Below are positions 1,957 to 15,405 of a DNA stretch of 64,000 nt, piece by piece. Positions within the stretch are counted from its first letter, which is position 1. Every line of letters starts with the position of its first letter. The notes beneath the pieces are model-generated. The model saw nothing but the letters and a program-made list of their open reading frames with translations. It did no database searches and was not told where the DNA came from. This DNA comes from an uncultured virus (IMG/VR IMGVR_UViG_3300045995_000154). Its lineage: Duplodnaviria > Heunggongvirae > Uroviricota > Caudoviricetes. The stretch is taken from IMG/VR virus record IMGVR_UViG_3300045995_000154. The stretch is one strand, 5' to 3'. Position numbers and translations under genes: made by a program.

Positions 1957-1970
1957 ATATTAAAATACAA

Positions 1971-2023
1971 CAGGATTCGCTTTGTTTTACATATGAAAGT
2001 ATAAAATTGCTGAAAGAATCCTA
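1971..2023 (-). ncRNA. CAGCAA-motif RNA (Y RNA-like family)
   Basis: AGGAUUC/GAAUCCU terminal helix followed by UUUCAGCAA. Confidence 0.6.
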
Positions 2024-3174: not shown

Positions 3175-3182
3175 CTAACTAA

Positions 3183-3352: not shown

Positions 3353-3359
3353 AAACTAA

Positions 3360-3717
3360 CAAATATGACCTGCCGCTACGTTTGGACTCTTACCACAGTT
3401 TTTCTCGAGGGTACAAGCCCCGACGCTGTTTATGGCCTTTTCAGGAACATCACTGCAAAGAGCACCGCGGAAGGATGATGCCCTACTGTTTACTTTTCGG
3501 TTAATTACTCCGACTAATTAGATGGGAATACGCGGCGCCTACTAGGAACTCAATGTTCCGTTCGACTTCTGTCCCCGGCAGCATCACCGCCGACACAATT
3601 TTTCATACCCTACTGGACCGACTTTGCTCATCGTTTGTCAATCGCGTCTGCTTGAACTACCAATGCACATTTGATTGAAGACCGCGGCGAACCCACGGCT
3701 CGGCACCCATCTACTAT
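3360..3717 (-). ncRNA. Large structured RNA, GOLLD/ROOL-type candidate
   Basis: ORF-free GC-richer block in a tRNA array with long-range helix UAGAUGGG/CCCAUCUA. Confidence 0.4.
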
Positions 3718-3739
3718 TGAAAAATGGTATCTTAGTATA

Positions 3740-4270: not shown

Positions 4271-4304
4271 ATAGCCTCCTACTTTATTTATACAAAATGT
4301 GTCG

Positions 4305-4990: not shown

Positions 4991-5039
4991 TTTAACGAAC
5001 ATCTAGCAGCTAACTCGATCATTTACTGCTTAAGTACCT

Positions 5040-5250
5040 ATTGTACATTAAAGTTAATTTAGTGTCAAACACTTTGTTTCTATCCCTTAGCAAGCTTAGG
5101 ATTTCTTCACTTAGTGCTTTATCTAACTTAAGTCTTATTGTACATTAAAACCTATTAAGCGTCAACTTAGTTTGGCAATCTTTTTACTTACCGCCAACCA
5201 CCTCATCAACTTAAGTACCTATTGTACATTAAAACGTTTATTACGTCAAA
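5040..5250 (-). promoter_or_regulatory. Three tandem sigma70 promoters
   Basis: TTGACA/TTGACG-N17-TACAAT three times, each with TTTAATG before the -10. Confidence 0.8.
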
Positions 5251-5566
5251 TCCTGAAGCTTTCGCCACATCCACAACGATCTCGCTCGTTTGGGTTGTTG
5301 AAGCGGAATCCCTCATTCAATCCTTCACGTACATAGTCCACTTCCATGCCTTGTAAATAGGCACAGCTCTTAGGGTCAACGAACAGTTTGCAGTCCTTGC
5401 ATTCAATGCAAAGGTCTTCTGCTTGCGCTTCGTCTACGTACTCTAGCACGTATGCTAGTCCACTGCAACCTGTTGTCTTAACGCCAAGACGGATACCGGC
5501 ACCTTTACCACGCTTTGCGATAACTTGCTGTATCTTTCTAGCTGCTTTATCAGTCAGTGACAACAT
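5246..5566 (-). CDS. iscA: Iron-sulfur cluster assembly protein IscA
   Basis: GCSGLAY and CGCGESF motifs. Confidence 0.95.
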   Translation of the reverse strand: MLSLTDKAARKIQQVIAKRGKGAGIRLGVKTTGCSGLAYVLEYVDEAQAEDLCIECKDCKLFVDPKSCAYLQGMEVDYVREGLNEGFRFNNPNERDRCGCGESFRI

Positions 5567-5943
5567 GCTTTGCCTTGTAATCTGCAACCGCTGCCTTGAT
5601 AGCATCTTCTGCAAGAATAGAGCAATGGATCTTTACTGGTGGCAGAGCGAGTTCTTCTGCGATTGTACTGTTTTTCAGGGACGCGGCTTCGTCCAGTGTT
5701 TTTCCTTTGACCCATTCTGTCACTAATGATGACGATGCAATGGCTGATCCGCAACCGTAAGTCTTAAATCGTGCATCAGTGATGATGCCGTCTACCACTT
5801 TGATTTGTAGCTTCATTACATCGTCAACAACCGCAAGCTGGGGCACCAACCATCCCGGTCCCAACTTGCGCATCTCCTTTACCGAACGACCCTACGTTCC
5901 TCGGGTTTTCATAATGGTCAATCACAGCATTTGAATAAGCCAT
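5550..5943 (-). pseudogene. iscU: Fe-S scaffold IscU, frameshifted by a 7-nt insertion
   Basis: MAYSNAVIDHYENPRNVG..GAPACG in one frame; DVMKLQI..GCGSAIASSS..LPPVKIHCS in another. Confidence 0.85.
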
Positions 5944-6526
5944 AATAACCTCCTTTTAAAAATCTTATTACGTGCATAGGTTGATAGCTATCCCACTTAG
6001 CACGATTGTCTGCACCCTTGAGGAACTGAATATTTTTCTTGCTCCCCAATACTTCAGCCGGTAGTCCTAATTCATATCCCTGTTTGTAGGGGACGACATG
6101 GTCTACTTGCCAATCTGTTTTTCTTTTACCGCAAGTGGGGACATATTCTCCTGCTTGCTTCATTGCCTTAATCGTTCTATAAGTTGCCTTGCGTACCATT
6201 CCCTTATACACTGCTAACTCACTGTTAGCTGGTTTTTTAGGACGTCGATTATTAACTGCTCCGTCTCTATTGGGGTTATTGGTGAGCCACTTTTGACTCT
6301 GCTTTTCGTTTGGCAAACCCTTGTTCCATCCGTGCCCTTTTTTAAGGCCGTCATGGTTTTGTTTCTCTTTTTGCTCTGCTGTTAGCTTAACCCCTTTGTT
6401 CCAAGCTTTATTACCTGGACGATTAATAGGGTTTTTGCATGGCGCAGAGCAATAAAGCACATACCTGGGTTTAGTTTCAAACAGGTTGCCGCAAAACTTA
6501 CAAACAGACGATATTCCGTATTTCAT
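5918..6526 (-). CDS. HNH homing endonuclease with NUMOD-like repeats
   Basis: WNKG twice, QVDHVVP..NIQFL..DNRAK; start after TAAATA. Confidence 0.75.
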   Translation of the reverse strand: MKYGISSVCKFCGNLFETKPRYVLYCSAPCKNPINRPGNKAWNKGVKLTAEQKEKQNHDGLKKGHGWNKGLPNEKQSQKWLTNNPNRDGAVNNRRPKKPANSELAVYKGMVRKATYRTIKAMKQAGEYVPTCGKRKTDWQVDHVVPYKQGYELGLPAEVLGSKKNIQFLKGADNRAKWDSYQPMHVIRFLKGGYYGLFKCCD

Positions 6527-6819
6527 ACAGTATTTATGTTGGTGCGCCCGTTTGCGAGTTTTTCCTGGCTCTTGTGCATCAAAGCACCGTACTTCAATGT
6601 GAACATGAATGTGTCGTCTGTTGCTACAGTGAACACAGCCCATGCTTTGTTAACTTTTCCCCAGCGGTAGTCTCGTTCACGTTCGTAATTGAACGTGTAA
6701 AAATCCGCATCTAATTCTGTCTCCATTGCCCACATCAAGATATCGTCTACGAATTCTTGGCGGGCATACTTGTGCTCATCCCTGTGAAGGTGGACGGGCA
6801 TTTCGATTCTAACTTTCAT
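6523..6819 (-). CDS. Hypothetical protein
   Basis: ORF with AGGAG RBS. Confidence 0.6.
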   Translation of the reverse strand: MKVRIEMPVHLHRDEHKYARQEFVDDILMWAMETELDADFYTFNYERERDYRWGKVNKAWAVFTVATDDTFMFTLKYGALMHKSQEKLANGRTNINTV

Positions 6820-6889
6820 TTTCGCTCCTTTGTTTTTCAACAATGGGAAGCGGTGAAGTGTGGTAAATAAAACATTTTTGTTTCCTTAT

Positions 6890-7022
6890 TGGTGGAGCAT
6901 TCGGGAGTTGAACCCGTCTCTTGGAACCTTTTGTCACCCTTGCGGGTCTAGCTTGATGATAAATCTCTGCTTGGCTTCTATCAACGTTCAGGATAGATTT
7001 GAGCCGACCTACACTATGCCCC
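6890..7022 (-). ncRNA. tmRNA-like mini RNA (133 nt)
   Basis: GGGGCAU/AUGCUCC-ACCA with G3-U70; GACGGGUUCAACUCCCG T-arm; no D or anticodon arm. Confidence 0.65.
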
Positions 7023-7026
7023 GTAT

Positions 7027-7080
7027 TGGTGGTCGGCCCACAGAGTCATGACCTCTGAATGCGCCCGGGCAATGCCGACC
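7027..7080 (-). ncRNA. 54-nt T-armless tRNA-like RNA with CAU loop
   Basis: Perfect 7-bp acceptor + ACCA; CAGAG-GUCAUGA-CUCUG hairpin. Confidence 0.55.
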
Positions 7081-7086
7081 GTAAAA

Positions 7087-7173
7087 TGGCGGAGAATAAT
7101 GGAATCGAACCATCACCGCTTTCGCAGTGGGGACGCTTTCCAAGCGCCGTAACCCCCAGGGTACCTACTCTCC
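7087..7173 (-). tRNA. tRNA-Ser(GGA)
   Basis: Long variable arm, G73, CCA. Confidence 0.85.
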
Positions 7174-7277
7174 TAAATTTAATAAGCAGACTGAAATAAT
7201 ATGCTGGGTTCTTGCAACCCTTCTTCTGGCTTAGTGTTCCTCATATCATGCCCGTTTCAGTCAGGCTCTGCTTAACT

Positions 7278-7367
7278 TGGCGGGGCGTAATAGAATCGAA
7301 CTATCACCGGGTACTAGCCAGTGGGCGAGTTTTCAAGGCTCGTTAACTTCCAAAGTTCCTACACCCC
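7278..7367 (-). tRNA. tRNA-Ser(UGA)
   Basis: Long variable arm, G73, CCA. Confidence 0.88.
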
Positions 7368-7381
7368 ATATTCATATTTAT

Positions 7382-7468
7382 TGGCGGATCATAATAGAAT
7401 CGAACTATCACCGCTTTCGCAGTGGGTCGGTATTCGAAGCCGATTAACGCCCAGCGTACCTATGATCC
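7382..7468 (-). tRNA. tRNA-Ser(CGA)
   Basis: Long variable arm, G73, CCA. Confidence 0.88.
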
Positions 7469-8664
7469 ATAATCTTTATCTTTTTAAATCCTGCATTAGT
7501 TGGATTCCCTGCTGGCTTTGCATTTTCTGGACATAAGCTGCAAGCAGGAATTTCATATAGCAAGTCATCAATAAACTTTTTAATTTTGGCAATCTCCCAA
7601 TTTGGATTGCCGGGCTCGTAGCTACTAGCTACCGCCATTTGTTCTTTTGTTGCATCAACTGCAAACTGTGCACTAAATTCGCCAAATACTGCAACTGGGC
7701 CGCATTTCCAAAGTCTACCTCTGGCAAATTGATATGCTTGCCACTCAACTGAAGTAAAGCAGCAATTTGAATGTGCTACTCTTCCGTTGCCAGTTTGGAA
7801 TTTAACAGTTTGCCCCACTTGCGTAAGCATAGTGTCATAAAACTTATATGAATCCATTACTAGCAATGATACGCCATTAGCATCAGTGATTTTATATCCA
7901 TCCGAAATTGGTTTTGGTGGTGCAAAATTAAACAATGTAATACATTCGTCTTGAATGTATTGCGGTAAATTTTTAAACTCATCAGGTCTGTTACATGCTG
8001 GCCAATCGTTGGCTTTGATGGAGTTGTATTTTTCAATCCATGCTGTGTTGCTAACTGCTCCCCAGTTTTCATCGAATGAGAATAACTCCTTGCATTCATC
8101 TTGAATGGCTGATGGCAAACTCTTAAAGTCAGACCTAAAATTACATGTTGGCCAATCTGCTAGTTTAATTTGTTTGTATTTTATGTCCCACCGACTACCT
8201 ATTACTTCTGGTGTCAGGGATGCATGTACATCAGCAGCAAAATTTGCGCTGCTCTTTACATACGGTGCAATTAAAAATTGATCTATTCCAGTCTGCGCAT
8301 TTTGCATTACTTCATTGCTGTGTGCAGACATCCTAACTGACAATCTTGGGTTTTTAAGTCGCTCGTACAATTCTGGCCAACGCGAGAACTGTGTACCATT
8401 TGTTAATATTTCTACCTTTGATGTGGGCCATAGACCCATAACGCCGTCTACCCACAACAAAAAATCTGGATTAAGCATAGGCTCACCACCCAAAATTACT
8501 ATGTGTTTAATGTCGACAATGGCCGCCCACTTGGTATACTCGGCTGAATAATCAGCCCAGCGTTCGTGGCCCTTAAACGTAAAATTGTTAAACCTATTAC
8601 AGTCAGTGCAATTCAAATTACATACGTTTGTGATGTAAAAATCTGCAAACTCGATTTCAATCAT
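7444..8664 (-). CDS. Radical SAM protein with internal tandem repeat
   Basis: CNLNCTDC, LGGEP, TNG, C-terminal CSLCP. Confidence 0.9.
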   Translation of the reverse strand: MIEIEFADFYITNVCNLNCTDCNRFNNFTFKGHERWADYSAEYTKWAAIVDIKHIVILGGEPMLNPDFLLWVDGVMGLWPTSKVEILTNGTQFSRWPELYERLKNPRLSVRMSAHSNEVMQNAQTGIDQFLIAPYVKSSANFAADVHASLTPEVIGSRWDIKYKQIKLADWPTCNFRSDFKSLPSAIQDECKELFSFDENWGAVSNTAWIEKYNSIKANDWPACNRPDEFKNLPQYIQDECITLFNFAPPKPISDGYKITDANGVSLLVMDSYKFYDTMLTQVGQTVKFQTGNGRVAHSNCCFTSVEWQAYQFARGRLWKCGPVAVFGEFSAQFAVDATKEQMAVASSYEPGNPNWEIAKIKKFIDDLLYEIPACSLCPENAKPAGNPTNAGFKKIKIMDHRYAGR

Positions 8665-9309
8665 TTATTGATGTTTATATGTTTCTATATATTTTACCAC
8701 ATTGGTATCAAACCATTGTGGGTTTGCATGTAAGTAATCAATTGTTTTACTTAATGTCCACGGTGTTCTATAAGGGCGATTCGACATTAGTGCTTCCGCA
8801 ACGTCACATGCCGCCAATATACGTATATTATGCGGAATTTGTTCCGCTGTCAATTTAAGTGGATAACCCGACCCATCTAATCGCTCATGATGCATATATG
8901 CAAAATCTACTAATGGCCACGGTGATACTAAATTAGATAAAATAATTTTACCAATCGGCACATGCGTTTCCGCAATCATCCGCTCACCAGGAGTAAGTGG
9001 TCCAGCCTTAGAAATAACACTGTGGTGGACACCTATTTTGCCTATATCATGTATCAACGATCCAATTGTGACACCAATCATGTCATGGTATGATAACCCC
9101 ATCTTGGATGCAACATGCGTTGCAATTTCTTCTGCAGAACACAAGTGATCACCTGTATGCGAGTCGTATGCTTGCATCATTGTGACTAGAGTTTCAAAGT
9201 GAGAACATATTGTTTTCACTGTCATCTCATCAGGAGAATTACCCATGCTAGCCATGTAGTGCTGCAAAAACTCTTTACTTGCAAACATGGCTTTAGTATT
9301 AGGGTGCAT
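8665..9309 (-). CDS. HD-GYP cyclic-dinucleotide phosphodiesterase
   Basis: HDIGK, HHERLDGSGYP, CDVAEAL..RPYR; start set at ATG 9309 because the longer version overlaps tRNA-Val. Confidence 0.9.
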   Translation of the reverse strand: MHPNTKAMFASKEFLQHYMASMGNSPDEMTVKTICSHFETLVTMMQAYDSHTGDHLCSAEEIATHVASKMGLSYHDMIGVTIGSLIHDIGKIGVHHSVISKAGPLTPGERMIAETHVPIGKIILSNLVSPWPLVDFAYMHHERLDGSGYPLKLTAEQIPHNIRILAACDVAEALMSNRPYRTPWTLSKTIDYLHANPQWFDTNVVKYIETYKHQ

Positions 9310-9319
9310 ACTATATTTA

Positions 9320-9393
9320 TGGTATCCCGTAGCAGAATTGAACTGCTGTTTTAACCATGTCAAAGTTACGCTCTACCATTGAGCTAACGGGAC
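9320..9393 (-). tRNA. tRNA-Val(GAC)
   Basis: Cloverleaf, CCA. Confidence 0.88.
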
Positions 9394-9399
9394 AAATTT

Positions 9400-9476
9400 T
9401 GGCATACCGGGAAGGATTCGAACCTTCATCACGCAATTTTGGAGACTGCTGTTCTGCCAATTGGAACTACCGATAT
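9400..9476 (-). tRNA. tRNA-Trp(CCA)
   Basis: Cloverleaf, CCA end. Confidence 0.82.
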
Positions 9477-9482
9477 ATAATT

Positions 9483-9570
9483 TGGCGGGTGAGAGAGGAC
9501 TTGAACCTCCACGCCTTTTTCAAAACGTCAGTTTAGCAAACTGATGCGGCTACCATTTCGCCACTCACCC
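9483..9570 (-). tRNA. tRNA-Ser(GCU)
   Basis: Long variable arm, G73. Confidence 0.9.
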
Positions 9571-9674
9571 ATTAATCTTACTGTGAGGGCTAACCTCTCT
9601 AGCGCAAGTAGCACGTTCCGGTTTACGCCGGTTCGGTTGAGCAGGGTCCAGGTTGCTTGGGACTACTTATACTC

Positions 9675-9749
9675 TGGAGCCTTCAGCTAGAATCAAACTA
9701 GCGATTACTGATTACGAAACAGTCGTGTTATCACTAACACTATAAAGGC
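9675..9749 (-). tRNA. tRNA-Thr(CGU)
   Basis: Cloverleaf, CCA. Confidence 0.82.
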
Positions 9750-9918
9750 ATATTAAATTAGAAGGTTGGATTTACGGTTTCGACACCGCTGCACCAACTT
9801 GTAAGACCGTAAGGGGGTCTTTCGGTAATATTCGGCCCACGTCGTCCGTCCGATATTTACCTATACACTGATATACGACCTGTCTACCAGTTGCTGTTCT
9901 ACCAGCTGCTTCTAAACT

Positions 9919-9995
9919 TGGTGCACCCTCTCGGATTCGAACCGAGAACATTTAGTTTCTAAGACTAACCTGACTACCAATTGCAGCAAGGGTGC
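9919..9995 (-). tRNA. tRNA-Leu(UAG), short variable loop
   Basis: Cloverleaf, A73, 5-nt variable loop. Confidence 0.85.
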
Positions 9996-10095
9996 ATATT
10001 CTGTGCTAGTTTACTCCTTACTAGCAAGTCCTATAAGTCGACTCTGCATTTAAGCCTGCAGAGCTTACTATGCCTATAGCGTAGGCTTAAAATAA

Positions 10096-10395
10096 TCAAC
10101 ACTCCGTAGCCGGGATTCTGTTCTATGCTAACATTAATCTTTGCCACAACCCGCACCTATAAGCAAAAGGTTCCCAAGTGCTGTTTGTGTTGCACACTAT
10201 ATCACGGTAGTGTTAACGATAGCATTTTGTGGTGGAGTTTGCCAGGGGCTTTCACCTGGTTGCGGCCTGGAGCGCGAAGGCCCAGTTTCGTCCTATATGT
10301 TACGTGTTCAAACCCCATTACAAAATACTATCTCCTACTCGCCCTTTGCGTGTGTCCCGAACTTCCTGACTTGCGCCCGTTAGCTCGAATGTTGA
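10096..10395 (-). ncRNA. rnpB: Ribonuclease P RNA
   Basis: P1 UCAACAUUC/GAGUGUUGA, P2 GCUAAC/GUUAGC, CR-I AGGAAGUUCGGGA, CR-V AACAGAAUCCCGGCUAC forming P4. Confidence 0.85.
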
Positions 10396-10399
10396 AATT

Positions 10400-10520
10400 T
10401 GGTGCAGCCCCGTGGATTCGAACCACGACCTCGTCCTTGTATAATGGAATGATTGTAGTGCTGTATTGTATCCTTGTCAGGATCGCTTTCTACGCGAGCT
10501 AACCATTACTCTAAGGCTGC
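10400..10520 (-). ncRNA. tRNA-shaped RNA with anticodon arm replaced by an AUCCU/AGGAU..ACAGCA module
   Basis: Canonical acceptor, D and T arms, CCA; ~60-nt central insert. Confidence 0.7.
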
Positions 10521-10527
10521 ATTAAAT

Positions 10528-10602
10528 TGGCCGGTCCTAGAGGAATCGAACCTCTACCCACTGTTTCGAAGACAATGATGATATCCATTTCACTAAGGAC
10601 CG
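10528..10602 (-). tRNA. tRNA-Arg(UCG)
   Basis: Cloverleaf, CCA. Confidence 0.88.
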
Positions 10603-10607
10603 ATATT

Positions 10608-10683
10608 TGGTGGGTCGCACGGGAGTCGAACCCGCCTGGTACTGATTAAGAGTCAGCTGCATCTGCCGCTTTGCTAACAACCC
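10608..10683 (-). tRNA. tRNA-Lys(CUU)
   Basis: Cloverleaf, CCA. Confidence 0.88.
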
Positions 10684-10691
10684 AAATTGTG

Positions 10692-10768
10692 TGGTGCCCC
10701 TGGTCAGATTCGAACTGACATCCAAAACCTTTTAAGGATTCCCGCACTACCAATTAGCGTACAGGGGC
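10692..10768 (-). tRNA. tRNA-Leu(UAA), short variable loop
   Basis: Cloverleaf, A73. Confidence 0.85.
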
Positions 10769-10877
10769 GAAAATAATTTAGCTAGAACAATCGCCAGGAT
10801 ATGTTGACACATACCCCAGCAGGGATTCGAACCCCATACACGCCTGATGTTCTATATTTTACGTGAGCCAAAAATAA

Positions 10878-10982
10878 CAGGATGTGGCGTCTATAGACCG
10901 GGACTCGAACCCTTGACGCACCCCCAGCGGGCCGGCCTCGCGAAGTATGGAGCGAGTTTTGAGTTTTGCTGCAATCATCCTA
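10878..10982 (-). ncRNA. CAGCAA-motif RNA with T-arm
   Basis: AGGAUG/CAUCCU helix, UUGCAGCAA, GGG-UUCGAGU-CCC. Confidence 0.6.
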
Positions 10983-10985
10983 AAC

Positions 10986-11061
10986 TGGTACATCGGACTG
11001 GCTTCGAACCAGTGACACCTAACTTTTCAGGCTAGTGCTCTACCAACTGAGCTACCGATGC
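10986..11061 (-). tRNA. tRNA-Phe(GAA)
   Basis: Cloverleaf, CCA. Confidence 0.88.
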
Positions 11062-11070
11062 ATAATATAA

Positions 11071-11133
11071 CAGGATCAACTTTTTAGTTTTCGAACAAAG
11101 AAAATTTTATTAAGTTTTGCTGAACTGATCCTA
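11071..11133 (-). ncRNA. CAGCAA-motif RNA
   Basis: AGGAUCA/UGAUCCU helix, GUUCAGCAA. Confidence 0.6.
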
Positions 11134-11137
11134 AAAC

Positions 11138-11215
11138 TGGTACCCTAGGTCGGATTCGAACCGACACGATTCTCCTTTTGAGAGAGACGCCTCATACCAA
11201 TTGGGCTACTAGGGC
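11138..11215 (-). tRNA. tRNA-Leu(CAA), short variable loop
   Basis: Cloverleaf, A73. Confidence 0.85.
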
Positions 11216-11224
11216 ATAATAACT

Positions 11225-11300
11225 TGGTGCAACCTACAGGGATCGAACCTGTTTCATCGGCTTTTCAGACCGCTGCAATGACCACATTTGCTAAAGTTGC
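11225..11300 (-). tRNA. tRNA-Phe(GAA)
   Basis: Cloverleaf, CCA. Confidence 0.82.
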
Positions 11301-11312
11301 ATAATAAACTTA

Positions 11313-11385
11313 GGGGTGACCGATGGGAGTTGAACCCATACTACCAGAGTCACAGTCTAGGTTGCTACCGCTACAACACGGCCAC
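11313..11385 (-). tRNA. tRNA-His(GUG)
   Basis: Cloverleaf, C73; G-1 and terminal A not encoded. Confidence 0.85.
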
Positions 11386-11404
11386 ACCTAAGTTCACTAA
11401 AATT

Positions 11405-11478
11405 TGGCAGCCCGTGTAGGAATCGAACCTACGCTTACTGAGTCAGAGTCAGTTATTCTTCCATTAAACTAACAGGCA
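11405..11478 (-). tRNA. tRNA-Gln(CUG)
   Basis: Cloverleaf, G73, CCA. Confidence 0.85.
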
Positions 11479-11484
11479 ACAAAT

Positions 11485-11571
11485 TGGCTGAGGAAGTACG
11501 ACTTGAACGTACACGCCCTTTACAGACACTGATTTCAAAGACCAGCGTGGCTACCATTTCACCATTCCCCA
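11485..11571 (-). tRNA. tRNA with Gln anticodon (UUG) and long variable arm
   Basis: 87 nt, CUGGU-CUUUGAA-AUCAG, variable arm GUCU-GUAA-AGGGC, G73. Confidence 0.8.
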
Positions 11572-11612
11572 ATAAACTATAAATAATATACATACATCAT
11601 TAAGGTACGTAT

Positions 11613-11912
11613 ATGAAAAACTTTCTAGCTGCACTTTTACTCGTTCCCACTTTATCATTCGCTACGCTTGAGCATTTCAAGAAGGACGTAATCTGCGAAG
11701 ACGAGGACAAATTAATGGCCGAATTAACTGGTCCTGAGTATCAGGAAGAAGTTGTCATTATCGGCAAAGGATCAGTAAACGTGTTAATCATTACGCTCAA
11801 CAAAGAAACAGGATCTTACTCTGTATTAGAAGTTAACGATGGTAAATTGTGCGGGCTAAACGTAGGCGATAATTTTACCATTAATTGGAAGAAAATGCCT
11901 ACACAAAAATAA
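11613..11912 (+). CDS. Small exported protein (signal peptide)
   Basis: MKNFLAALLLVPTLSFA; TATAAATA at 11578 and AAGG RBS. Confidence 0.75.
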   Translation: MKNFLAALLLVPTLSFATLEHFKKDVICEDEDKLMAELTGPEYQEEVVIIGKGSVNVLIITLNKETGSYSVLEVNDGKLCGLNVGDNFTINWKKMPTQK

Positions 11913-11977
11913 CAGGAAGAGGTTGTCGACTAAGACACCAAAAGTTTAAGTCTGTATTGTTTGCAGAACTCTTCCTA
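11913..11977 (-). ncRNA. CUGCAA-motif RNA
   Basis: AGGAAGAG/CUCUUCCU helix, UUCUGCAA. Confidence 0.55.
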
Positions 11978-11981
11978 AAAC

Positions 11982-12236
11982 TGGCTTCGTCAACAAGACT
12001 CGAACTTGTGATGCGGGGTTAAAATCGCGTATGCTGGGTCCCCGTGTGTTTCCCAAAGTTACCCTCGTATCCCCTCAATGCCTTATCTCACTCTTCATGC
12101 ATTTCAACCTGTTCCGCACTTCCCGGACTCACAGTGTTTGGTTTTAAAGCCTACGCGATTGTTATCTACTTTGCACTACTAGCTGCCTTATCTCACCTAC
12201 TCAATACTACTCTACCTTCCTCTACACTATAACGAA
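11982..12236 (-). ncRNA. 255-nt RNA with tRNA-like termini and purine-rich interior
   Basis: UUCGUUA/UGACGAA-GCCA, T-arm ACAAG-UUCGAGU-CUUGU, 13-nt internal repeat. Confidence 0.6.
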
Positions 12237-12244
12237 ATAAAACT

Positions 12245-12319
12245 TGGTGCTCTCTGGCAGATTTGAACTGCCTTCTGTGGACTACAAAACCACTATTCTC
12301 CCGAGTGAACTAAGAGAGC
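12245..12319 (-). tRNA. tRNA-Thr(UGU)
   Basis: Cloverleaf, CCA. Confidence 0.82.
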
Positions 12320-12328
12320 ATAATATAA

Positions 12329-12446
12329 CAGGATGCCTTAATAGACGGCGTGAAGCCGTTGCTCTGCCATTAGAGCGTACTACGCGATGTGCGTGGTGTT
12401 GGAATCGAACCAACTGATCTAAAAGATCGTTGCTGCAAGCATCCTA
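12329..12446 (-). ncRNA. YrlA-like RNA (circularly permuted tRNA domain)
   Basis: AGGAUGC/GCAUCCU helix + UUGCAGCAA; order T-arm, loop-closed acceptor-like stem, D-arm. Confidence 0.7.
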
Positions 12447-12450
12447 AAAC

Positions 12451-12525
12451 TGGTACCTCCTGAGAGAATCGAACTCCCATCCCAACGTTCGTAGCGTTGT
12501 ACATTATCCATTATACGAAGGAGGC
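12451..12525 (-). tRNA. tRNA-Arg(ACG)
   Basis: Cloverleaf, CCA. Confidence 0.88.
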
Positions 12526-12531
12526 AAAAAC

Positions 12532-12605
12532 TGGTGGAGCTCTGGGGAATCGAACCCCAATGACTAACTTGCAAGGCTAGTATAATCCCATTATATGAGA
12601 ACCCC
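12532..12605 (-). tRNA. tRNA-Ala(UGC)
   Basis: G3-U70, CCA. Confidence 0.88.
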
Positions 12606-12613
12606 GATAAATT

Positions 12614-12688
12614 TGGTGGAGGCCGGGGGTATCGAACCCCTCTAGACATGATCATTGCAAGTGAACACCGCAGCCCTCTGCTGCCCCC
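12614..12688 (-). tRNA. Atypical tRNA-Ala(UGC)
   Basis: G3-U70, CCA, non-standard D arm. Confidence 0.65.
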
Positions 12689-12696
12689 ATTATAGG

Positions 12697-12849
12697 TTTT
12701 GAGAGACCAACTATCTTTCTTAAGGACTCGCTGGCTTGTCTCGAATTAAGAGAGTTTATACAACCTTGTACAATTCTACTGGTGTGTCATGCTCAAGAAA
12801 TAGGGCACTAGAATACAAGGGACTCAATCTCAATCGTCTATCTCAAATC
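12697..12849 (-). ncRNA. Rod-like structured RNA, ~150 nt
   Basis: UUUGAGA/UCUCAAA closing helix, internal CCUUGUA/UACAAGG and UUCUA/UAGAA. Confidence 0.45.
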
Positions 12850-12923
12850 TGGTGCTGAATGCGGGAATCGAACCCACGTAAGCTACGTACCAAGCAGCTA
12901 GGTTACCACTACATCAATTCAGC
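12850..12923 (-). tRNA. tRNA-Thr(GGU)
   Basis: Cloverleaf, CCA. Confidence 0.85.
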
Positions 12924-12930
12924 TTGTCTC

Positions 12931-13005
12931 TGGTGGTACTGATGAGAATCGAACTCATTTCTTGCAGCGTATGAAGCTGGTGCATTACCTTAATGCTACA
13001 GGACC
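12931..13005 (-). tRNA. tRNA-Met/Ile2(CAU)
   Basis: Cloverleaf, CCA. Confidence 0.82.
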
Positions 13006-13014
13006 ATAATAACT

Positions 13015-13086
13015 TGGAGCGGGTGACAGGGTTCGAACCTGCATCTTTCGGCTTGGAAGGCCAAACGTATTCCACAAACCACACGC
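13015..13086 (-). tRNA. tRNA-Gly(UCC), weak D arm
   Basis: Anticodon and T arms, U73, CCA. Confidence 0.65.
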
Positions 13087-13139
13087 ATATAAGAGAATTT
13101 TTGACTCATTTCTGACCGCCCTCTTTACATGGCATAAAT

Positions 13140-13218
13140 TGGCTCCGCATCTGGGACTCGAACCCAGCTATACATTGATTAACAGTCAAGTCCGTGCACC
13201 TGGCTCGGATTCTGCGGA
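13140..13218 (-). tRNA. tRNA-Asn(GUU)
   Basis: U1-A72, G73, CCA. Confidence 0.85.
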
Positions 13219-13225
13219 ATAAAAT

Positions 13226-13304
13226 TGGCTCCGTGTGTGAGGATCGAACTCACCTAATCATTGATTAACAGTCAAGTCCTTGCACCATGCTTGGATTTCA
13301 CGGA
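13226..13304 (-). tRNA. tRNA-Asn(GUU)
   Basis: U1-A72, G73, CCA. Confidence 0.85.
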
Positions 13305-13371
13305 ATAAAAGATGCCAGCCACGAGGGGACTGCTGGCGTTAGTCACCGTCTTAATACTGGTGACCAAAATT

Positions 13372-13459
13372 TGGTGGAACGTGTAGGATTCGAACCTACT
13401 ACCCTTGGAAGGGCGCGATGTTACAGACCGCTCTAGCACTCCAACTCTAGCGACGAACC
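13372..13459 (-). tRNA. tRNA-Tyr(GUA)
   Basis: Long variable arm, CCA. Confidence 0.75.
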
Positions 13460-13464
13460 AAATT

Positions 13465-13548
13465 TGGTGGAGACGTGTGGTTTCGATCCACTCCCATAAT
13501 GGGCGAGTTTTACAGACTCGCTGCTGAAGCCATCAGCTTTCCATCTCC
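13465..13548 (-). tRNA. tRNA-Tyr(GUA)
   Basis: Long variable arm, CCA. Confidence 0.78.
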
Positions 13549-13556
13549 AAAAATAG

Positions 13557-13617
13557 CAGGATAGTTTTTACGGTTTTGATTAAAAGTCAAATGTAATTGT
13601 TTGCTGAACCTATCCTA
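13557..13617 (-). ncRNA. CAGCAA-motif RNA carrying a tRNA-Lys(UUU) anticodon stem-loop
   Basis: AGGAUAG/CUAUCCU helix, GUUCAGCAA, UUUGA-CUUUUAA-UCAAA. Confidence 0.65.
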
Positions 13618-13621
13618 TAAC

Positions 13622-13696
13622 TGGCGCCGTAGACGAGACTCGAACTCGCCTGACTCACATCGACAGTGTGGTGCCCTCCCCGAGAGCTACTACGGC
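13622..13696 (-). tRNA. tRNA-Asp(GUC)
   Basis: Cloverleaf, G73. Confidence 0.82.
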
Positions 13697-13786
13697 ATAT
13701 AACTTGGCGGCACGAAACCAGCTGTGCACTTACGCTTCTTAGCTTCTCGTTCCTAGGAAACTTACGCTTGGGTCATCGCCCTAACT

Positions 13787-13860
13787 TGGTGTGAGATAAG
13801 GGAATCGAACCCTTGACTAAAAGTTGGCAACCTTTAATTTTACCATTAAACTAATCCCAC
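13787..13860 (-). tRNA. tRNA-Gly(GCC)
   Basis: Cloverleaf, CCA, atypical A73. Confidence 0.8.
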
Positions 13861-13868
13861 ATAAAAAC

Positions 13869-13942
13869 TGGTCAGGGTACAAGGAATCGAACCTTGGCCA
13901 CGACGCCCCAAACGTCGCATGATACCATTTCACCACACCCTG
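13869..13942 (-). tRNA. tRNA-Pro(UGG)
   Basis: Cloverleaf, C1-G72. Confidence 0.88.
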
Positions 13943-13951
13943 AAAATACAT

Positions 13952-14028
13952 TGGTCTGCGCTGAAGGATTCGAACCTTCGACCCCTCGGTTCCAGGCCGA
14001 GAACTCTACCAGACTGAGCTAAACACAG
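13952..14028 (-). tRNA. tRNA-Pro(UGG), loop CC-UGG-AA
   Basis: Cloverleaf, C1-G72, C33 and A37. Confidence 0.82.
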
Positions 14029-14038
14029 ATTAAAAACT

Positions 14039-14112
14039 TGGTACATCGTTGGAGAATTGAACTCCCATCAACGGTATGTAACACCGCTATTCTACCATTA
14101 AACTACCGATGC
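14039..14112 (-). tRNA. tRNA-Val(UAC)
   Basis: Cloverleaf, CCA. Confidence 0.82.
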
Positions 14113-14120
14113 AAACTAAC

Positions 14121-14195
14121 TGGAGTCGCGTACGGGGATCGAACCCGCCTGAACAGGTTGAAAGCCTGTGGACCTCACCAAAAGTCAAACGCGAC
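14121..14195 (-). tRNA. tRNA-Glu(UUC)
   Basis: Cloverleaf, CCA. Confidence 0.85.
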
Positions 14196-14202
14196 ATAAA
14201 CT

Positions 14203-14276
14203 TGGTACCCTGTCCAGGTAACGATCCTGGGTCTATCGGTTATCAGCCGATTGCTCTACCTTTGAGCTAACTGGGC
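14203..14276 (-). tRNA. tRNA-Ile(GAU)
   Basis: Cloverleaf, CCA. Confidence 0.88.
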
Positions 14277-14284
14277 ACTAAACT

Positions 14285-14358
14285 TGGTACGGGATGTAGG
14301 GATCGAACCTACGCTCTCAGAGTCAAAGTCTGATATGCTACCATTACATAAATCCCGA
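14285..14358 (-). tRNA. tRNA-Gln(UUG)
   Basis: Cloverleaf, CCA. Confidence 0.82.
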
Positions 14359-14454
14359 TCAAAAAACTTACCTACTGTGGCTACTCCTTAGTAGCATATA
14401 GATTCAGAGTCTATAGGTCCTGCAAATTTACTGCTTGCCACCCATGTACGTCAG

Positions 14455-14531
14455 TAGGTATTCAAAATAGCAGTTAGTAACCTTTGCAATGCCATTGCTG
14501 ATTCAGGCACAACTGCTATTTTGAATACCTA
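14455..14531. repeat. Perfect 21-bp inverted repeat with 35-nt loop
   Basis: TAGGTATTCAAAATAGCAGTT / AACTGCTATTTTGAATACCTA. Confidence 0.9.
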
Positions 14532-14683
14532 GCATTGCTGCTAGATATGTTGGGGTCTCTGTGCCCCAACCAGGAGTCTTACTAATGTGTTCTCACCACA
14601 CGTTCATGTTTCCTGTCCGCCCTTTTTACAGCTTAATTTATAGTGTTCTGCTAGGTCTACGTTACCTATCCACACTGCACATA

Positions 14684-14842
14684 TTAGCAGGCAATTAAAC
14701 TGCCTTTATGCGACTTCTTTTTACATTGTAACTGCGCATTACGCATCAGCTTCTTCGCAATAAGCTCTTTGAACTTATCTTGTGTTAGCGTAAACGTTGC
14801 CAGCCACTCTGTTTGTTGTTTCAATTTTTTATCTGTTTCCAT
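14684..14842 (-). CDS. Small basic protein (52 aa)
   Basis: METDKKLKQQ..., AAGGA RBS; below ORF-track cutoff. Confidence 0.55.
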   Translation of the reverse strand: METDKKLKQQTEWLATFTLTQDKFKELIAKKLMRNAQLQCKKKSHKGSLIAC

Positions 14843-14855
14843 TATTCCTTTTCAC

Positions 14856-14895
14856 AAAACAAAAAACCCTGGGGTCTTTCGACTTCCAGGGTTCT
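14856..14895 (-). terminator. Intrinsic terminator in the leader of the RNA array
   Basis: AACCCUGG..CCAGGGUU hairpin followed by U-run. Confidence 0.7.
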
Positions 14896-14921
14896 TGAGT
14901 TTCTGTAGTTTACATGCTACT

Positions 14922-15104
14922 TTAGCATAAACCACTTCCCTCTCGAACCCTGCCCTTAATCTCCCCGCGTGTCACAATAGTTTCTGTACTCGCATTATAC
15001 GAGCCGCTTGTAAAGCTATTGGACAATGTCGCATCATGCCACATCGGTGCCACGGGCTGTATCGCCTGGACTGATTGTTGCAATGATAAGAGACTATGTT
15101 TCAT
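14922..15104 (-). CDS. Putative leader peptide (60 aa)
   Basis: ORF between triple promoters and the terminator. Confidence 0.45.
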   Translation of the reverse strand: MKHSLLSLQQSVQAIQPVAPMWHDATLSNSFTSGSYNASTETIVTRGEIKGRVREGSGLC

Positions 15105-15161
15105 TTTGTTTACCGTTTTAACTGTTTAAAGTTGCCTTGTTTAATTAACTTACTAAGCACA

Positions 15162-15405
15162 ATTGTACATTAAACTGATTAATGTGTCAACTGCTTCTGT
15201 TTATTTATCCTACCTCGTAACGCCGAATTATTTCTGCGTTACAAAGTCTTCTAACTTGTTACCAGTGTACATTAAATTAAATTTAACGTCAACTGCTTCT
15301 TCAATTTATTTATGCCATTTCAAAAAACACTGCTTTTATGCGGGCTTTTTGAGCTTTTTGCATTTCCAAGTACGTAGTGTACATTAAAACGTTTATTGCG
15401 TCAAC
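15162..15405 (-). promoter_or_regulatory. Three tandem sigma70 promoters
   Basis: TTGAC(A/G)-N17-TACA(A/C)T three times with TTTAATG before the -10. Confidence 0.8.

Follow-up and report, generated by a model that had tools for sequence, protein, structure and literature searches.

On the minus strand of a large uncultured phage, a 121-nt RNA gene with an encoded CCA end combines a complete tRNA body with a hairpin motif, here termed the handle. The question raised by this locus is whether the product is a working tRNA, a broken tRNA or an RNA of another kind. The comparison of this RNA (the candidate) with its homologues, with the other handle-bearing RNAs and with the proteins encoded beside them points to a Y RNA of a new and rearranged kind as its probable identity, in preference to a functional or a decayed tRNA. 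In the following, the window denotes the whole stretch of DNA analysed, which is 64,000 nt long.

An arm inserted into a complete tRNA fold

The candidate consists of the following parts:

10400..10520, minus strand: whole closed-handle tRNA-shaped RNA, 121 nt, with G1 at 10520 and CCA at 10402..10400
10514..10520, minus strand: 5′ strand of the acceptor stem, GCAGCCU, with its partner at 10404-10410 (7/7 pairs in the candidate)
10496..10511, minus strand: D arm, GAGU-AAUGGUUA-GCUC
10493..10494, minus strand: anticodon-stem positions 27-28 (CG), paired with 42-43 at 10432-10433 across the insert
10449..10492, minus strand: 44-nt insert between tRNA positions 28 and 29, from the class alignment and position parsing
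10470..10483, minus strand: handle hairpin, AUCCU-GACA-AGGAU
10459..10463, minus strand: CAGCA motif, 6 nt past the hairpin (5 nt in most class members)
10434..10448, minus strand: inner anticodon stem UCC/GGA with the 9-nt loop AUUAUACAA
10411..10427, minus strand: T arm, CGUGG-UUCGAAU-CCACG
10400..10410, minus strand: 3′ strand of the acceptor stem, GGGCUGC, discriminator A73 and encoded CCA

The 7-bp acceptor stem, the discriminator, the CCA end and the D and T arms with their conserved nucleotides are all present, in agreement with the initial annotation, which had described a CCA-ended tRNA with canonical acceptor, D and T arms. The same annotation held that the anticodon arm is replaced by the handle, but comparison with 47 homologues indicates that the arm is kept. 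C27-G28 pairs with C42-G43 and UCC (29-31) with GGA (39-41), and the 44 nt are placed in the 5′ strand of the anticodon stem, which still closes across them. The 5-bp stem is therefore not continuous, being split at 28/29, and its loop has 9 nt instead of 7, while excision of the 44 nt would yield a cloverleaf of normal proportions. The comparative structure lies 5 kcal/mol above the predicted minimum (-27.7 versus -32.8).

Within the insert, the alignment of the class reveals an A-rich linker, the handle hairpin, the CAGCA motif and a 3′ linker, in this order. The string AUCCU-GACA-AGGAU-ACAAUA-CAGCA occupies 10483..10459 on the minus strand, the stem being closed by the GACA loop and the motif reading CAGCAC at a spacing of 6 nt from the hairpin. 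The corresponding closed-handle pattern, ATCCTNNNNAGGATN{5,6}CAGCA, occurs once in the window, as compared to 0.00 occurrences expected from 100 shuffles.

The candidate is missed by ARAGORN with default settings, and no match of the Rfam tRNA model RF00005 (gathering threshold 29 bits) covers 10400-10520; the homologue in genome G009 scores 50.3 bits with this model. Expression was approached through metatranscriptomes, where four runs shared 0.05-0.10 of the sampled words; over 9000-14500 these contained fragments of relatives only, none of them spanning the insert or showing a junction at it, and the fragments fall for example on the neighbouring RNase P-like RNA and on member F2 of the open-handle family described below.

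The initial annotation placed the candidate next to the RNase P gene, and an RNase P-like RNA does lie there:

10091..10396, minus strand: RNase P RNA-like gene, directly following the candidate and not part of the candidate RNA

RF00010 matches 10396..10091 over its full length (1-367) with 28.2 bits and an E value of 4e-7 in a 541-nt search, the gathering score being 100, and the CR-I and CR-V-like blocks align. In G009, no RNase P-like RNA was detected within 20 kb of the closed-handle tRNA at E up to 0.01, so the adjacency is not general.

A conserved and widespread class

Closed-handle tRNAs are a conserved, widespread class, with pattern matches in 73 stretches of IMG/VR; literature searches did not find these RNAs in print. 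A covariance model built from class members (R1) assigns 73.8-133.7 bits to members, as opposed to at most 51.5 bits for ordinary tRNAs. The candidate obtains 110.6 bits (E ~1e-25, model positions 1-121), a match which is partly given by construction, because its identical twin, L296, sat in the seed alignment. The handle helix is invariant in the member set that was selected by pattern. Searching 65 further loci with R1 only, however, gave 10 matches, four of which (L128, L170, L185 and L187) have handle helices with compensatory changes, the variants in the R1-only members being AACCU/AGGUU, ACUCU/AGAGU and AUUCU/AGAAU.

The fold is maintained throughout the class. Standard pairs occupy 99.2% of 1237 pair cells, compared to 78.2% in shuffles, none of 500 shuffles reaching as high a value, and compensatory changes are found at 18 of the 26 proposed pairs, with every tRNA helix represented. 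Across 48 class members all seven acceptor pairs are compensatory; the D stem is 100% paired (three of four pairs compensatory) and the T-arm helix 99.6% paired. The outer anticodon stem (27-28/42-43) is likewise 100% paired, one pair occurring as CG 37, UA 8, AU 2 and UG 1 times and the other as UA 24, GC 21, CG 2 and UG 1 times. The inner three pairs (29-31/39-41) are 96.5% paired and include ACC/GGU and UCU/AGA variants. Furthermore, U8, A14, the D-loop GG and the T-loop GGUUC.A.UCC are invariant in alignment A1, and the insertion point is constant at 28/29. The candidate had been suggested to be a tRNA-to-Y-RNA intermediate, a reading that is not supported, because the closed-handle RNAs form a conserved class in which each helix of the tRNA shows compensatory changes.

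These comparative data also bear on the output of ARAGORN with introns allowed (-i), in which the candidate appears as a tRNA-Gly(UCC) whose 38-nt intron interrupts positions 32/33 and whose variable loop has 11 nt. This parse is wrong in all likelihood, because the presumed anticodon UCC is stem, pairing with GGA at positions whose pairing is conserved in the class, while the real loop lies downstream; in addition, the anticodon stem drawn by ARAGORN contains a G.A mismatch.

Pairing of the two insert linkers (helix X) was considered as a further element and was rejected, the score for all 43 sequences being 3.70 versus 3.30 for controls with mismatched partners and 3.51 for shuffles. In the subgroup with CG at 27-28, helix X had looked convincing, taking the forms GUAG/CUAC, GUAGA/UCUAC, GUAUAU/AUAUAC, GUAUUA/UAAUAC and GUAAA/UUUAC there.

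Members in cultured phages

Class members are also present in cultured phages, where they went unnoticed. Three of them in KVP40 carry the RefSeq annotations tRNA-Pseudo-3, -4 and -5, and R1 scores two of the three, at 74.5 and 53.3 bits; two more sites in the same genome, both unannotated, reach 84.9 and 77.1 bits. Cronobacter phage S13 encodes a pair which is listed in RefSeq as 'tRNA-Ser' (121 nt) and 'tRNA-OTHER' (113 nt), with R1 scores of 83.3 and 53.8 bits, where the scores near 53 bits in KVP40 and S13 barely exceed that of the best ordinary tRNA (51.5). The handle helix sequence differs in KVP40 and S13. These RefSeq entries belong to the same class as the candidate, but were labelled as pseudogenes or odd tRNAs, without a structural or functional reading. 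T4, on the other hand, has no closed-handle tRNA, and its species 1 and 2 RNAs (rnaC and rnaD) contain no handle.

The KVP40 labels raise the possibility that the candidate is a dead tRNA gene, disrupted by a selfish handle element. Its aberrant 9-nt loop and its escape from default tRNA finders would be in line with such a pseudo-tRNA, as would the 'pseudo-forms of low score' mentioned in the phi-pp2 paper (PMC3468402). Nevertheless, class members from phages with only 67-70% DNA identity in conserved genes keep the same architecture and the same insertion point, and compensation is seen in the handle helix as well as in each helix of the tRNA, which argues for purifying selection on the whole unit and not for decay. 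A dead gene is hence considered very unlikely.

The handle as a module of small RNAs

The handle clamps six other small RNAs of the tRNA array, in which its two strands join the ends of the RNA, and the candidate holds its loop-closed form:

1965..2022, minus strand: open-handle member F1
10878..10981, minus strand: open-handle member F2
11071..11132, minus strand: open-handle member F3, full-length match to RF01414 with 13.4 bits
11913..11976, minus strand: open-handle member F4, AGGAA/UUCCU helix and CUGCAA motif
12329..12445, minus strand: open-handle member F5 (the '12329 RNA'), permuted tRNA body with a sealed acceptor stem
13557..13616, minus strand: open-handle member F6, cargo like a Lys-UUU anticodon hairpin

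The open handle, AGGATNNNTNCAGCAA, occurs five times on the same strand as the candidate, as compared to an expectation of 0.00, and the sixth copy has a compensatory AGGAA/UUCCU helix. The CAGCA motif is likewise present after the 5′ strand in all open-handle RNAs, and the proposal that AUCCU-GACA-AGGAU is the family handle closed by a loop is supported. The candidate was also described as the opposite circular permutation of the 12329 RNA; this is not exact, as by inspection the handle of the latter joins the body near 43/44, on the variable-loop side. In G009, an RNA similar to F2 adjoins the closed-handle tRNA.

The open-handle set comprises 184 unique RNAs, of which 96 do not exceed 75 nt; others contain permuted or acceptor-less tRNA bodies or carry cargo of up to ~240 nt. 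The nucleotide after AUCCU is G in 183 of the 184, although the search pattern left that position free. Since neither a lone hairpin nor a form without acceptor can give rise to a tRNA, the handle is best regarded as a module and not as an intron signal.

This distinction is important for the main rival explanation, splicing to an ordinary tRNA. The candidate would then be an intron-bearing pre-tRNA, from which a phage or host endonuclease removes the 44-nt handle and RtcB or an Rnl-type ligase joins the exons to give a tRNA of ~77 nt; by extension, permuted tRNA genes of the open-handle type could be processed by these same enzymes, passing through a circular intermediate. The regular cloverleaf formed by the exons counts for an intron, because an intron-bearing gene looks like that, and the anticodon stem maintained over the insert by compensatory changes and the constancy of the insertion point also fit. 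However, many handle RNAs are a hairpin only or an acceptor-less body, unable to yield tRNAs. The loops point in both directions: among 42 unique members, 26 have 7-nt loops with readable anticodons, the commonest of which is GUC (11 members, nine with G73, an identity element of AspRS), but 15 have 8-nt loops, the candidate alone has 9 nt, and Ser-type anticodons sit on class-I bodies, which have no long variable arm. Similarly, RtcB is present in three of five complete genomes and a PF09414 RNA ligase in four of five, but the complete genome G005 is without both, and the splicing endonuclease family PF01974, detected in four archaeal controls, was found in none of the five complete carrier phage genomes. 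In the three genomes examined (G007, G008 and G009), moreover, ordinary tRNAs cover all 20 amino acids, and G008 and G009 retain an ordinary tRNA-Asp(GUC) beside the closed-handle GUC copy; the closed-handle tRNA is thus redundant in all three and is not needed for decoding.

Archaea and algae have tRNA genes that contain introns or are circularly permuted. These genes, which are of the bulge-helix-bulge type, resemble the candidate in that the insertion occupies a non-canonical tRNA position, and in the phage genomes too the flanking handle is found on permuted tRNA bodies. Inspection of the alignments, however, showed no bulge-helix-bulge, the junction being three-way and lacking a 3-4-3 motif, and unlike the archaeal and algal introns, the handle also frames RNAs that are unable to become tRNAs. 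In bacteria, group I introns are the only introns known in tRNA genes, and their ribozyme core exceeds ~200 nt; a group I intron was rejected, as the insert has only 44 nt. Taken as a whole, splicing to an ordinary tRNA appears unlikely. A bolder variant of the RNP system proposed further below is that the handle may label tRNA genes that are interrupted or permuted, directing them to a cut-and-join pathway driven by protein, which, if true, would have no precedent among bacterial viruses.

A Ro60-like protein encoded beside the handle RNAs

In the vicinity of open handles, the protein encoded most often, at 35 of 65 loci, is one of ~470 aa with DUF2828 and DUF7788 domains (PHROG 850); in KVP40 it is KVP40.0300. 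Out of 36 such genes, 32 are preceded on their own strand, at no more than 700 nt, by one to four handle RNAs, and in 26 of those genes the last handle ends at most 60 nt before the start codon. PF25043 was detected in nine of 10 records and in none of the 14 control genomes; the positive records include G002 and all eight complete or near-complete genomes with a closed-handle tRNA, these co-occurrence counts having T4 and the 14 control genomes as their only negative set. In G002, of which the stretch examined is identical to positions 1-18664 of the window, four handle RNAs precede the gene. Closed-handle tRNAs can also lie near the gene: Cronobacter phage S13 encodes two at a distance of ~0.5 kb on the downstream side, and Synechococcus phage BUCT-ZZ01 has two at ~180 nt, again downstream; in the phage studied here, the gene is 20.2 kb from the candidate and does not adjoin it. 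In total, the protein is encoded in 704 of 50,697 phage records.

The DUF2828/DUF7788 protein matches the Ro60 fold by structure prediction. The AlphaFold model (pLDDT 75, pTM 0.74) was compared with known structures by Foldseek, and at E values of 0.001 or lower all 12 matches listed, of 13, are Ro60/TROVE structures (E 5e-7 to 4e-4), with moderate TM-scores of 0.39-0.60. The Pfam TROVE model found nothing in five genomes, from which the absence of a Ro60 partner had been concluded, a conclusion that is overturned by the Foldseek matches; likewise, phmmer searches of the protein against PDB sequences gave nothing at E up to 1. The clusters found in the protein atlas are viral only, none being eukaryotic. 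The closed-handle class would be paired with a protein family of predicted Ro60 fold which escapes standard TROVE models.

That handle RNAs are placed so closely upstream of the gene for the Ro60-like protein, and co-occur with it in eight of eight genomes, suggests a protein partner. This weighs against the RNA acting independently of this protein as a decoy or sensor, where the tRNA body and loop would bait anticodon nucleases of the host or tRNA-modifying enzymes and the handle would stabilise or mark the RNA. Some features of the loops would suit such a bait: across the class they vary widely on a constant tRNA body, and the short open-handle RNAs keep U33 and a purine at 37 in 33 of 44 seven-nt hairpin loops, with UUU, UGU, GUU and UCU as the commonest anticodons, which we take to overlap known anticodon-nuclease targets. 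The 9-nt loop of the candidate, however, fits no normal anticodon loop, and a stand-alone decoy is judged to be improbable.

A phosphoesterase of 262 aa (PHROG 547) is also common near handle RNAs. In the phage studied here, the Ro60-like gene is followed by an ORF that was considered as a copy of it and was rejected, being a different protein.

A proposed Y RNA analogue of inverted topology

Ro60-Y RNA particles form an RNA quality-control system, which has long been studied and is still poorly understood, and the known bacterial Y RNAs are tRNA mimics with a sealed acceptor end. The initial link to Y RNAs proved apt, in that handle RNAs lie directly upstream of a gene for a protein of predicted Ro60 fold. 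Because the same handle module marks the small RNAs next to this gene, the candidate is interpreted as a tRNA-shaped Y RNA analogue which docks the Ro60-like protein and retains its handle; we infer binding, retention and a downstream role, and assign this reading a probability of about 0.55.

In this model, the 121-nt RNA folds as a complete L-shaped tRNA whose anticodon stem closes over the insertion, with an extra arm jutting from the 5′ strand of this stem between 28 and 29 and bearing the handle. The handle consists of a short helix, the A-U and G-C closing pairs of which are conserved, then a G and, at a fixed distance, CAGCA; it would stay in the mature RNA and dock the Ro60-like protein. 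The result would be a Y RNA analogue of inverted topology, with a free CCA end and a closed handle, that may couple the protein to tRNA-recognising machinery, as the analogy with Ro60-Y RNA particles suggests, or may alternatively pose as a tRNA in the surveillance or repair of tRNAs or in counter-defence.

The closest known counterparts are YrlA and the other bacterial and phage Y RNAs of RF02553, which are bound by Ro60 (Rsr) and likewise unite a tRNA-like body and a protein-docking module in one small RNA. Like the class members of S13 and BUCT-ZZ01, they are encoded beside a protein of Ro60 fold, often with RNA-repair genes nearby. A permuted handle-family member of another phage scores 36.8 bits to the tRNA-like part of RF02553, while this model (threshold 69 bits) has no match on the candidate at E up to 10, and its sole match in 9000-15000, of 27.9 bits, runs across two ordinary tRNAs. 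Compared to YrlA, the topology of the candidate is inverted, the acceptor being open with CCA and the docking helix loop-closed, and the anticodon stem-loop is kept. In effect, the class would turn the Y RNA design inside out, a CCA-ended tRNA body holding the docking module within its anticodon stem. The proteins differ as well, the one found here being of the DUF2828/DUF7788 type, which the Pfam TROVE model misses. The motif through which YrlA binds Rsr is GNCGAAN0-1G near the 5′ end, according to Chen et al. (2014, PMC4201824). Sequence inspection found this motif absent from the candidate, whose docking motif would instead be the short helix with CAGCA, and none of the known Ro60-binding motifs occurs in the handle. 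Table S2 of the same article lists Bacillus phage G, CcrColossus and 20 mycobacteriophages, and neither KVP40 nor a Cronobacter or Vibrio phage was found in that file (PMC4201824).

If the docking model holds true, it would hint for the first time at a function of the handle RNAs, of which phage tRNA arrays are full, and the class members in cultured phages, such as the KVP40 pseudo-tRNAs, make the idea directly testable. A wider proposal is that the handle and the DUF2828/DUF7788 protein constitute a hitherto unrecognised RNP system of large phages, which would display interchangeable tRNA parts (whole CCA-ended tRNAs, sealed permuted tRNAs and bare anticodon hairpins) and intercept, repair or mimic tRNAs amid the conflict over host anticodon nucleases; this is speculative and doubtful.

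Similarity to the Class I RNAs of social amoebae

The handle bears a resemblance to RF01414, the orphan Class I RNAs found in social amoebae, which may for this reason belong to the same RNP system. Dictyostelid Class I RNAs may represent its eukaryotic branch, in which case the phage RNAs may offer a first functional lead for these orphan RNAs of Dictyostelium. According to Kjellin et al. (2021, PMC7919456), Class I RNAs have been found in no group other than Dictyostelia.

Several differences separate the two groups. In the candidate, the stem is loop-closed and lies inside a tRNA; the phage handle RNAs are located in tRNA operons, whereas Class I RNAs stand behind a DUSE promoter; and the protein known to bind Class I RNAs is of the RRM type, while RRM_1 was found in none of five phage genomes. 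Full-length RF01414 matches to open-handle RNAs were nonetheless obtained at 13 of 20 loci, with 20.1-36.5 bits and a best E value of 6e-4, all scores of open-handle RNAs being below the gathering score of 41.5. Both kinds of RNA are ~60 nt long with a short terminal stem joining their ends, both have a conserved motif right after the 5′ strand, and both carry a 3′ CUGU, the C of which pairs with a conserved 5′ G.

The candidate RNA and its split anticodon arm

The minus strand at 10520..10400 encodes a 121-nt RNA with acceptor strands GCAGCCU/GGGCUGC, A73 and an encoded CCA, a D arm GAGU-AAUGGUUA-GCUC and a T arm CGUGG-UUCGAAU-CCACG. The D arm is separated from the T arm by 68 nt that include AUCCU-GACA-AGGAU-ACAAUA-CAGCA, and composite motifs of this type occur once in the window, versus 0.00 expected. 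The short helix and the CAGCA form the handle, which is closed by a loop in this RNA and open in the small RNAs treated below. The initial annotation described the arms, the CCA and the handle string correctly; its claim that the handle replaces the anticodon arm is contradicted by the homologues.

A scan of IMG/VR with the closed-form pattern (ATCCTGNNNAGGATN{5,6}CAGCAN{25,50}GGTTC) returned 73 stretches, which reduce to 49-55 unique sequences depending on end trimming. In the aligned class, the 3' strand of the anticodon arm (tRNA positions 39-43; GGACG, GGAAG, UGGAA etc.) is continuous, while the 5' strand is split, with 27-28 placed just after the D arm and 29-31 (mostly UCC) just before a normal-looking loop, and the arm is therefore kept. 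The insert of the candidate spans RNA positions 29-72 (window 10492-10449, 44 nt), and the comparative structure has an energy of -27.7 kcal/mol versus a predicted minimum of -32.8.

A covariance model of the class (R1), built from 41 sequences, scores its members at 73.8-133.7 bits versus at most 51.5 bits for ordinary tRNAs; the 110.6 bits of the candidate (E ~1e-25) arise partly by construction, as its twin L296 was a seed sequence. In a 48-sequence alignment, which favours the structure because it was fitted to R1, standard pairs fill 99.2% of 1237 cells versus 78.2% after shuffling (0/500 shuffles reach the observed value), slid-partner controls are 40-54% paired, and compensatory changes occur at 18 of 26 pairs. 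The two outer anticodon pairs, which reach across the insert, are 100% paired (CG 37, UA 8, AU 2, UG 1; and UA 24, GC 21, CG 2, UG 1), and the inner three are 96.5% paired. That the RNAs are pseudogenes is very unlikely.

The handle helix is invariant in this alignment because the search pattern fixed it. An independent model-only R1 search of 65 open-handle loci gave 10 matches, four of which (L128, L170, L185 and L187) carry AACCU/AGGUU, ACUCU/AGAGU or AUUCU/AGAAU; together with further variants in KVP40 and Cronobacter phage S13, these show that the hairpin is also backed by compensation. The two loop-adjacent pairs (A-U, G-C), the following G and a CAGCA ~10 nt from the 5' A do not vary. 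A helix between the two linkers of the insert is seen in one subgroup and is overall no better than controls. The closed-handle architecture is thus real and conserved, and the proposal of an evolutionary intermediate does not stand.

The handle as a module

Six other same-strand small RNAs in the window have open ends (5' AGGAU-NNN-UN-CAGCAA ... NNN'-AUCCUG-UU 3'), each preceded by a tRNA CCA and a short U-rich spacer. The exact pattern matches five times versus 0.00 expected, and the sixth RNA has the compensatory helix AGGAA/UUCCU. Across IMG/VR the open pattern occurs in at least 145 stretches, with 2-5 copies on many contigs. Among 184 unique RNAs, 96 are at most 75 nt and 36 are 100-119 nt, the others reaching ~240 nt; a G that the pattern did not require follows AUCCU in 183. 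The short RNAs contain 44 predicted 7-nt hairpin loops, 33 of them with U33 and a purine at 37 (UUU 9, UGU 6, GUU 5, UCU 4), and those of 100-119 nt, as far as read, are either tRNA bodies in permuted order whose acceptor is sealed or tRNA bodies with the handle in place of the acceptor.

Reading of the sequences places the handle at the acceptor, near 43/44 (as in the permuted tRNA at 12329..12445, minus strand) or at 28/29. Many open-handle RNAs would, by their sequence, never be able to become tRNAs, which argues against the handle as a simple intron signal. The Dictyostelium Class I RNA model (RF01414) matches open-handle RNAs along the whole model in 13 of 20 loci at 20.1-36.5 bits, under its gathering score of 41.5. 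The features published for Class I RNA (PMC7919456) agree: the terminal stem is short, the 5' strand is followed by a motif, and a conserved 5' G pairs with the C in a 3' CUGU. The resemblance is real but falls short of membership.

A proposed Ro60-like protein partner

When ORFs were clustered over 65 open-handle loci, of which a few have a contig in common, the commonest protein (35 loci, ~470 aa) carried DUF2828 and DUF7788; it belongs to PHROG 850 ('RNA-binding protein') and has weak vWA similarity with a DVSGS motif. For 32 of 36 such genes, the 700 nt upstream contain one to four same-strand handle RNAs, and the last ends at most 60 nt before the start codon in 26. PF25043 is found in 9 of 10 records, namely this phage (G002) and all eight complete or near-complete closed-handle genomes (G003-G010); it is absent from the fragment G001 and from all 14 control genomes. 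An AlphaFold model (10-sequence alignment; pLDDT 75, pTM 0.74) gave 13 Foldseek matches at E <=0.001. All 12 listed are Ro60/TROVE structures, including Thermus phage Ro60, Deinococcus Rsr, and Xenopus and human Ro60, and among these E ranges from 5e-7 to 4e-4 and TM from 0.39 to 0.60 with alignments spanning almost the entire length; matches of lower rank consist of single vWA domains. The Pfam TROVE model misses this family (0/5 genomes). By tblastn, 704 of 50,697 phage records contain the protein. Other protein clusters near handles include a phosphoesterase, a P-loop kinase and a phosphatase-like protein, a set resembling bacterial rsr–Y RNA–RNA repair neighbourhoods.

In this phage the gene for the 470-aa protein (DUF2828/DUF7788; G002 contig 20504-21913) is 20.2 kb away from the candidate, at ~9.8 kb beyond the left end of the window. 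At this locus (L404:1441-3534, contig 20504-22400), four same-strand handle RNAs of very unequal sizes precede the gene, and one ends just before the ribosome-binding site. In many IMG/VR contigs (L146 2848-3250, L201, L240 and others), two large conserved handle RNAs of ~160 nt and ~225 nt are the immediate upstream neighbours of the Ro60-like gene.

Retention, splicing and decoding

These findings make it somewhat probable (roughly 0.55) that the insert stays in the mature RNA, where the retained handle would dock the Ro60-like protein; the RNA would then be a Y-RNA analogue whose CCA-ended tRNA body is free. The structure, the shared motif, the genomic linkage and the protein fold are results of the analysis; docking, retention and a role further downstream are inferred. 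On the motif and on the Y-RNA character the initial annotation is upheld, and the architecture represents a fresh variation on the tRNA-mimicking Y-RNA idea. A decoy independent of the protein is quite doubtful.

The main rival, splicing, would remove the handle insert. The exons form a normally proportioned cloverleaf, the insert enters at a constant point and ligases are common (RtcB in 3/5, Rnl-type in 4/5 genomes); however, PF01974 is found in 0/5 genomes, one complete genome has neither ligase family, inspection revealed no bulge-helix-bulge motif, and many members have abnormal loop sizes, so that splicing appears unlikely. Among 42 unique members, with the parse of the L329 loop adjusted by hand from 9 to 7 nt, the loop has 7 nt in 26, 8 nt in 15 and 9 nt in the candidate alone (AUUAUACAA). 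The 7-nt loops present GUC (11), UCU (4), GCU (3) and single GAU, UGA, UGU, UCG, UAU, GUU, CAU and GAC anticodons, and members with Ser-type anticodons have a body without a long variable arm.

In three carrier genomes that are complete or nearly so, each of the 20 amino acids is already served by ordinary tRNAs:

G007, 99% complete, 49 tRNAs
G009, 100% complete, 40 tRNAs
G008, 83% complete, 40 tRNAs

Beside the closed-handle GUC copy, G008 has two ordinary tRNA-Asp(GUC) genes and G009 one, as one of two ARAGORN calls in G009 is a partial call on the closed-handle gene itself. In the window ARAGORN likewise finds ordinary tRNA genes, two for Asp and two for Gly(UCC), thus the closed-handle RNA is not needed to fill a gap in decoding; a spliced paralogue may be compatible with this redundancy. 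The ARAGORN parse as tRNA-Gly(UCC) is hardly credible.

Closed-handle tRNAs in cultured phages

Cronobacter phage S13 has two closed-handle tRNAs ~0.5 kb downstream of its Ro60-like gene, annotated 'tRNA-Ser' (121 nt) and 'tRNA-OTHER' (113 nt), and Synechococcus phage BUCT-ZZ01 has two ~180 nt downstream. KVP40 (NC_005083.2 179301-181841; L411 1288-5842) gives four R1 matches, two at unannotated sites (84.9 and 77.1 bits) and two at tRNA-Pseudo-3 and tRNA-Pseudo-4 (74.5 and 53.3 bits); tRNA-Pseudo-5, not among the matches, has the architecture by eye. The KVP40 tRNA array also holds four open-handle RNAs with differing helix sequences, and they lie 3.4 kb upstream of its gene for the Ro60-like protein (KVP40.0300). 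T4 has no R1 match.

Chen et al. 2014 (PMC4201824) place YrlA beside Ro60 genes with a TROVE annotation in 22 phages, which their Table S2 gives as Bacillus phage G, CcrColossus and 20 mycobacteriophages; KVP40, Cronobacter and Vibrio phage are absent from the Table S2 file. The phi-pp2/KVP40 paper, in its available part, mentions only 'pseudo-forms of low score' (PMC3468402). Closed- and open-handle RNAs are not described in the literature covered, mostly that outside subscription journals, on phage permuted tRNAs, Y RNAs, tRNA arrays, Class I RNA, anticodon decoys, tRNA introns, DUF2828 and TROVE/vWA RNA repair, and the architecture is apparently undescribed.

Genomic setting and further features of the window

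The window derives from a large T4-like myophage:

26296-27879, large terminase
36740-39883, tail sheath
47022-48413, gp15 homologue

The tRNA array occupies the minus strand from 12 to 14358. In the window ARAGORN predicts 45 genes, of which one lies well outside the array, and Rfam gives 38 tRNA matches. L118, a stretch of an IMG/VR contig in record G002, is 100% identical to window 1-18664, and its contig extends 31.7 kb further left; CheckV figures (59 kb = 17%, 134 kb = 38%) imply a genome of ~350 kb.

The RNase P gene proposed next to the candidate is borne out as an RNase P-like RNA, though a weak one:

10091-10396 (-), RNase P RNA-like gene, RF00010 over full length at 28.2 bits (gathering score 100)

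It matches bacterial class A; blocks like CR-I and CR-V can be recognised, although the deletions are large, and RNA-library contigs of relatives cover 10104-10221 and 10329-10367. The surroundings of the closed-handle tRNA in G009 yielded no counterpart.

Other features of the window are as follows:

57181-57278 (-), 98-nt ARAGORN tRNA-Val(AAC) call within a 1212-aa ORF (56049-59687), probably false
3017-3091 (-), tRNA with anticodon UUA (ARAGORN; Rfam 45.7 bits), which would read the stop codon UAA
13089-13371 (-), tandem tRNA-Asn(GUU)-like genes with odd D regions, both ending GAGCCA, uncalled by ARAGORN and Rfam
13460-13545 (-), tRNA-like gene with a CCA end, in which the variable arm is long and the anticodon loop (UCUGUAAAA) longer than normal, uncalled by ARAGORN
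12606-12849 (-), 244-nt gap terminating in a T arm and GGCCUCCACCA, which may hold a small tmRNA-like or tRNA-like RNA; ARAGORN finds no tmRNA; the relatives G007, G008 and G009 have one each
1235-1283 (-), tRNA fragment in the array: T arm, acceptor 3' strand and CCA without the 5' half
~870-960 (-), further tRNA fragment in the array: ~60-nt tRNA-like gene without a D arm
5246-9363 (-), protein genes inside the array, for Fe-S assembly proteins (one IscA-like, one NifU-like), a radical SAM protein of 406 aa and an HD_5 phosphohydrolase, which may serve tRNA modification
12046-12220 (-), unannotated stretch between tRNA-like genes, matched by RNA-library contigs from three runs at 90-99% identity, which may be another conserved structured RNA
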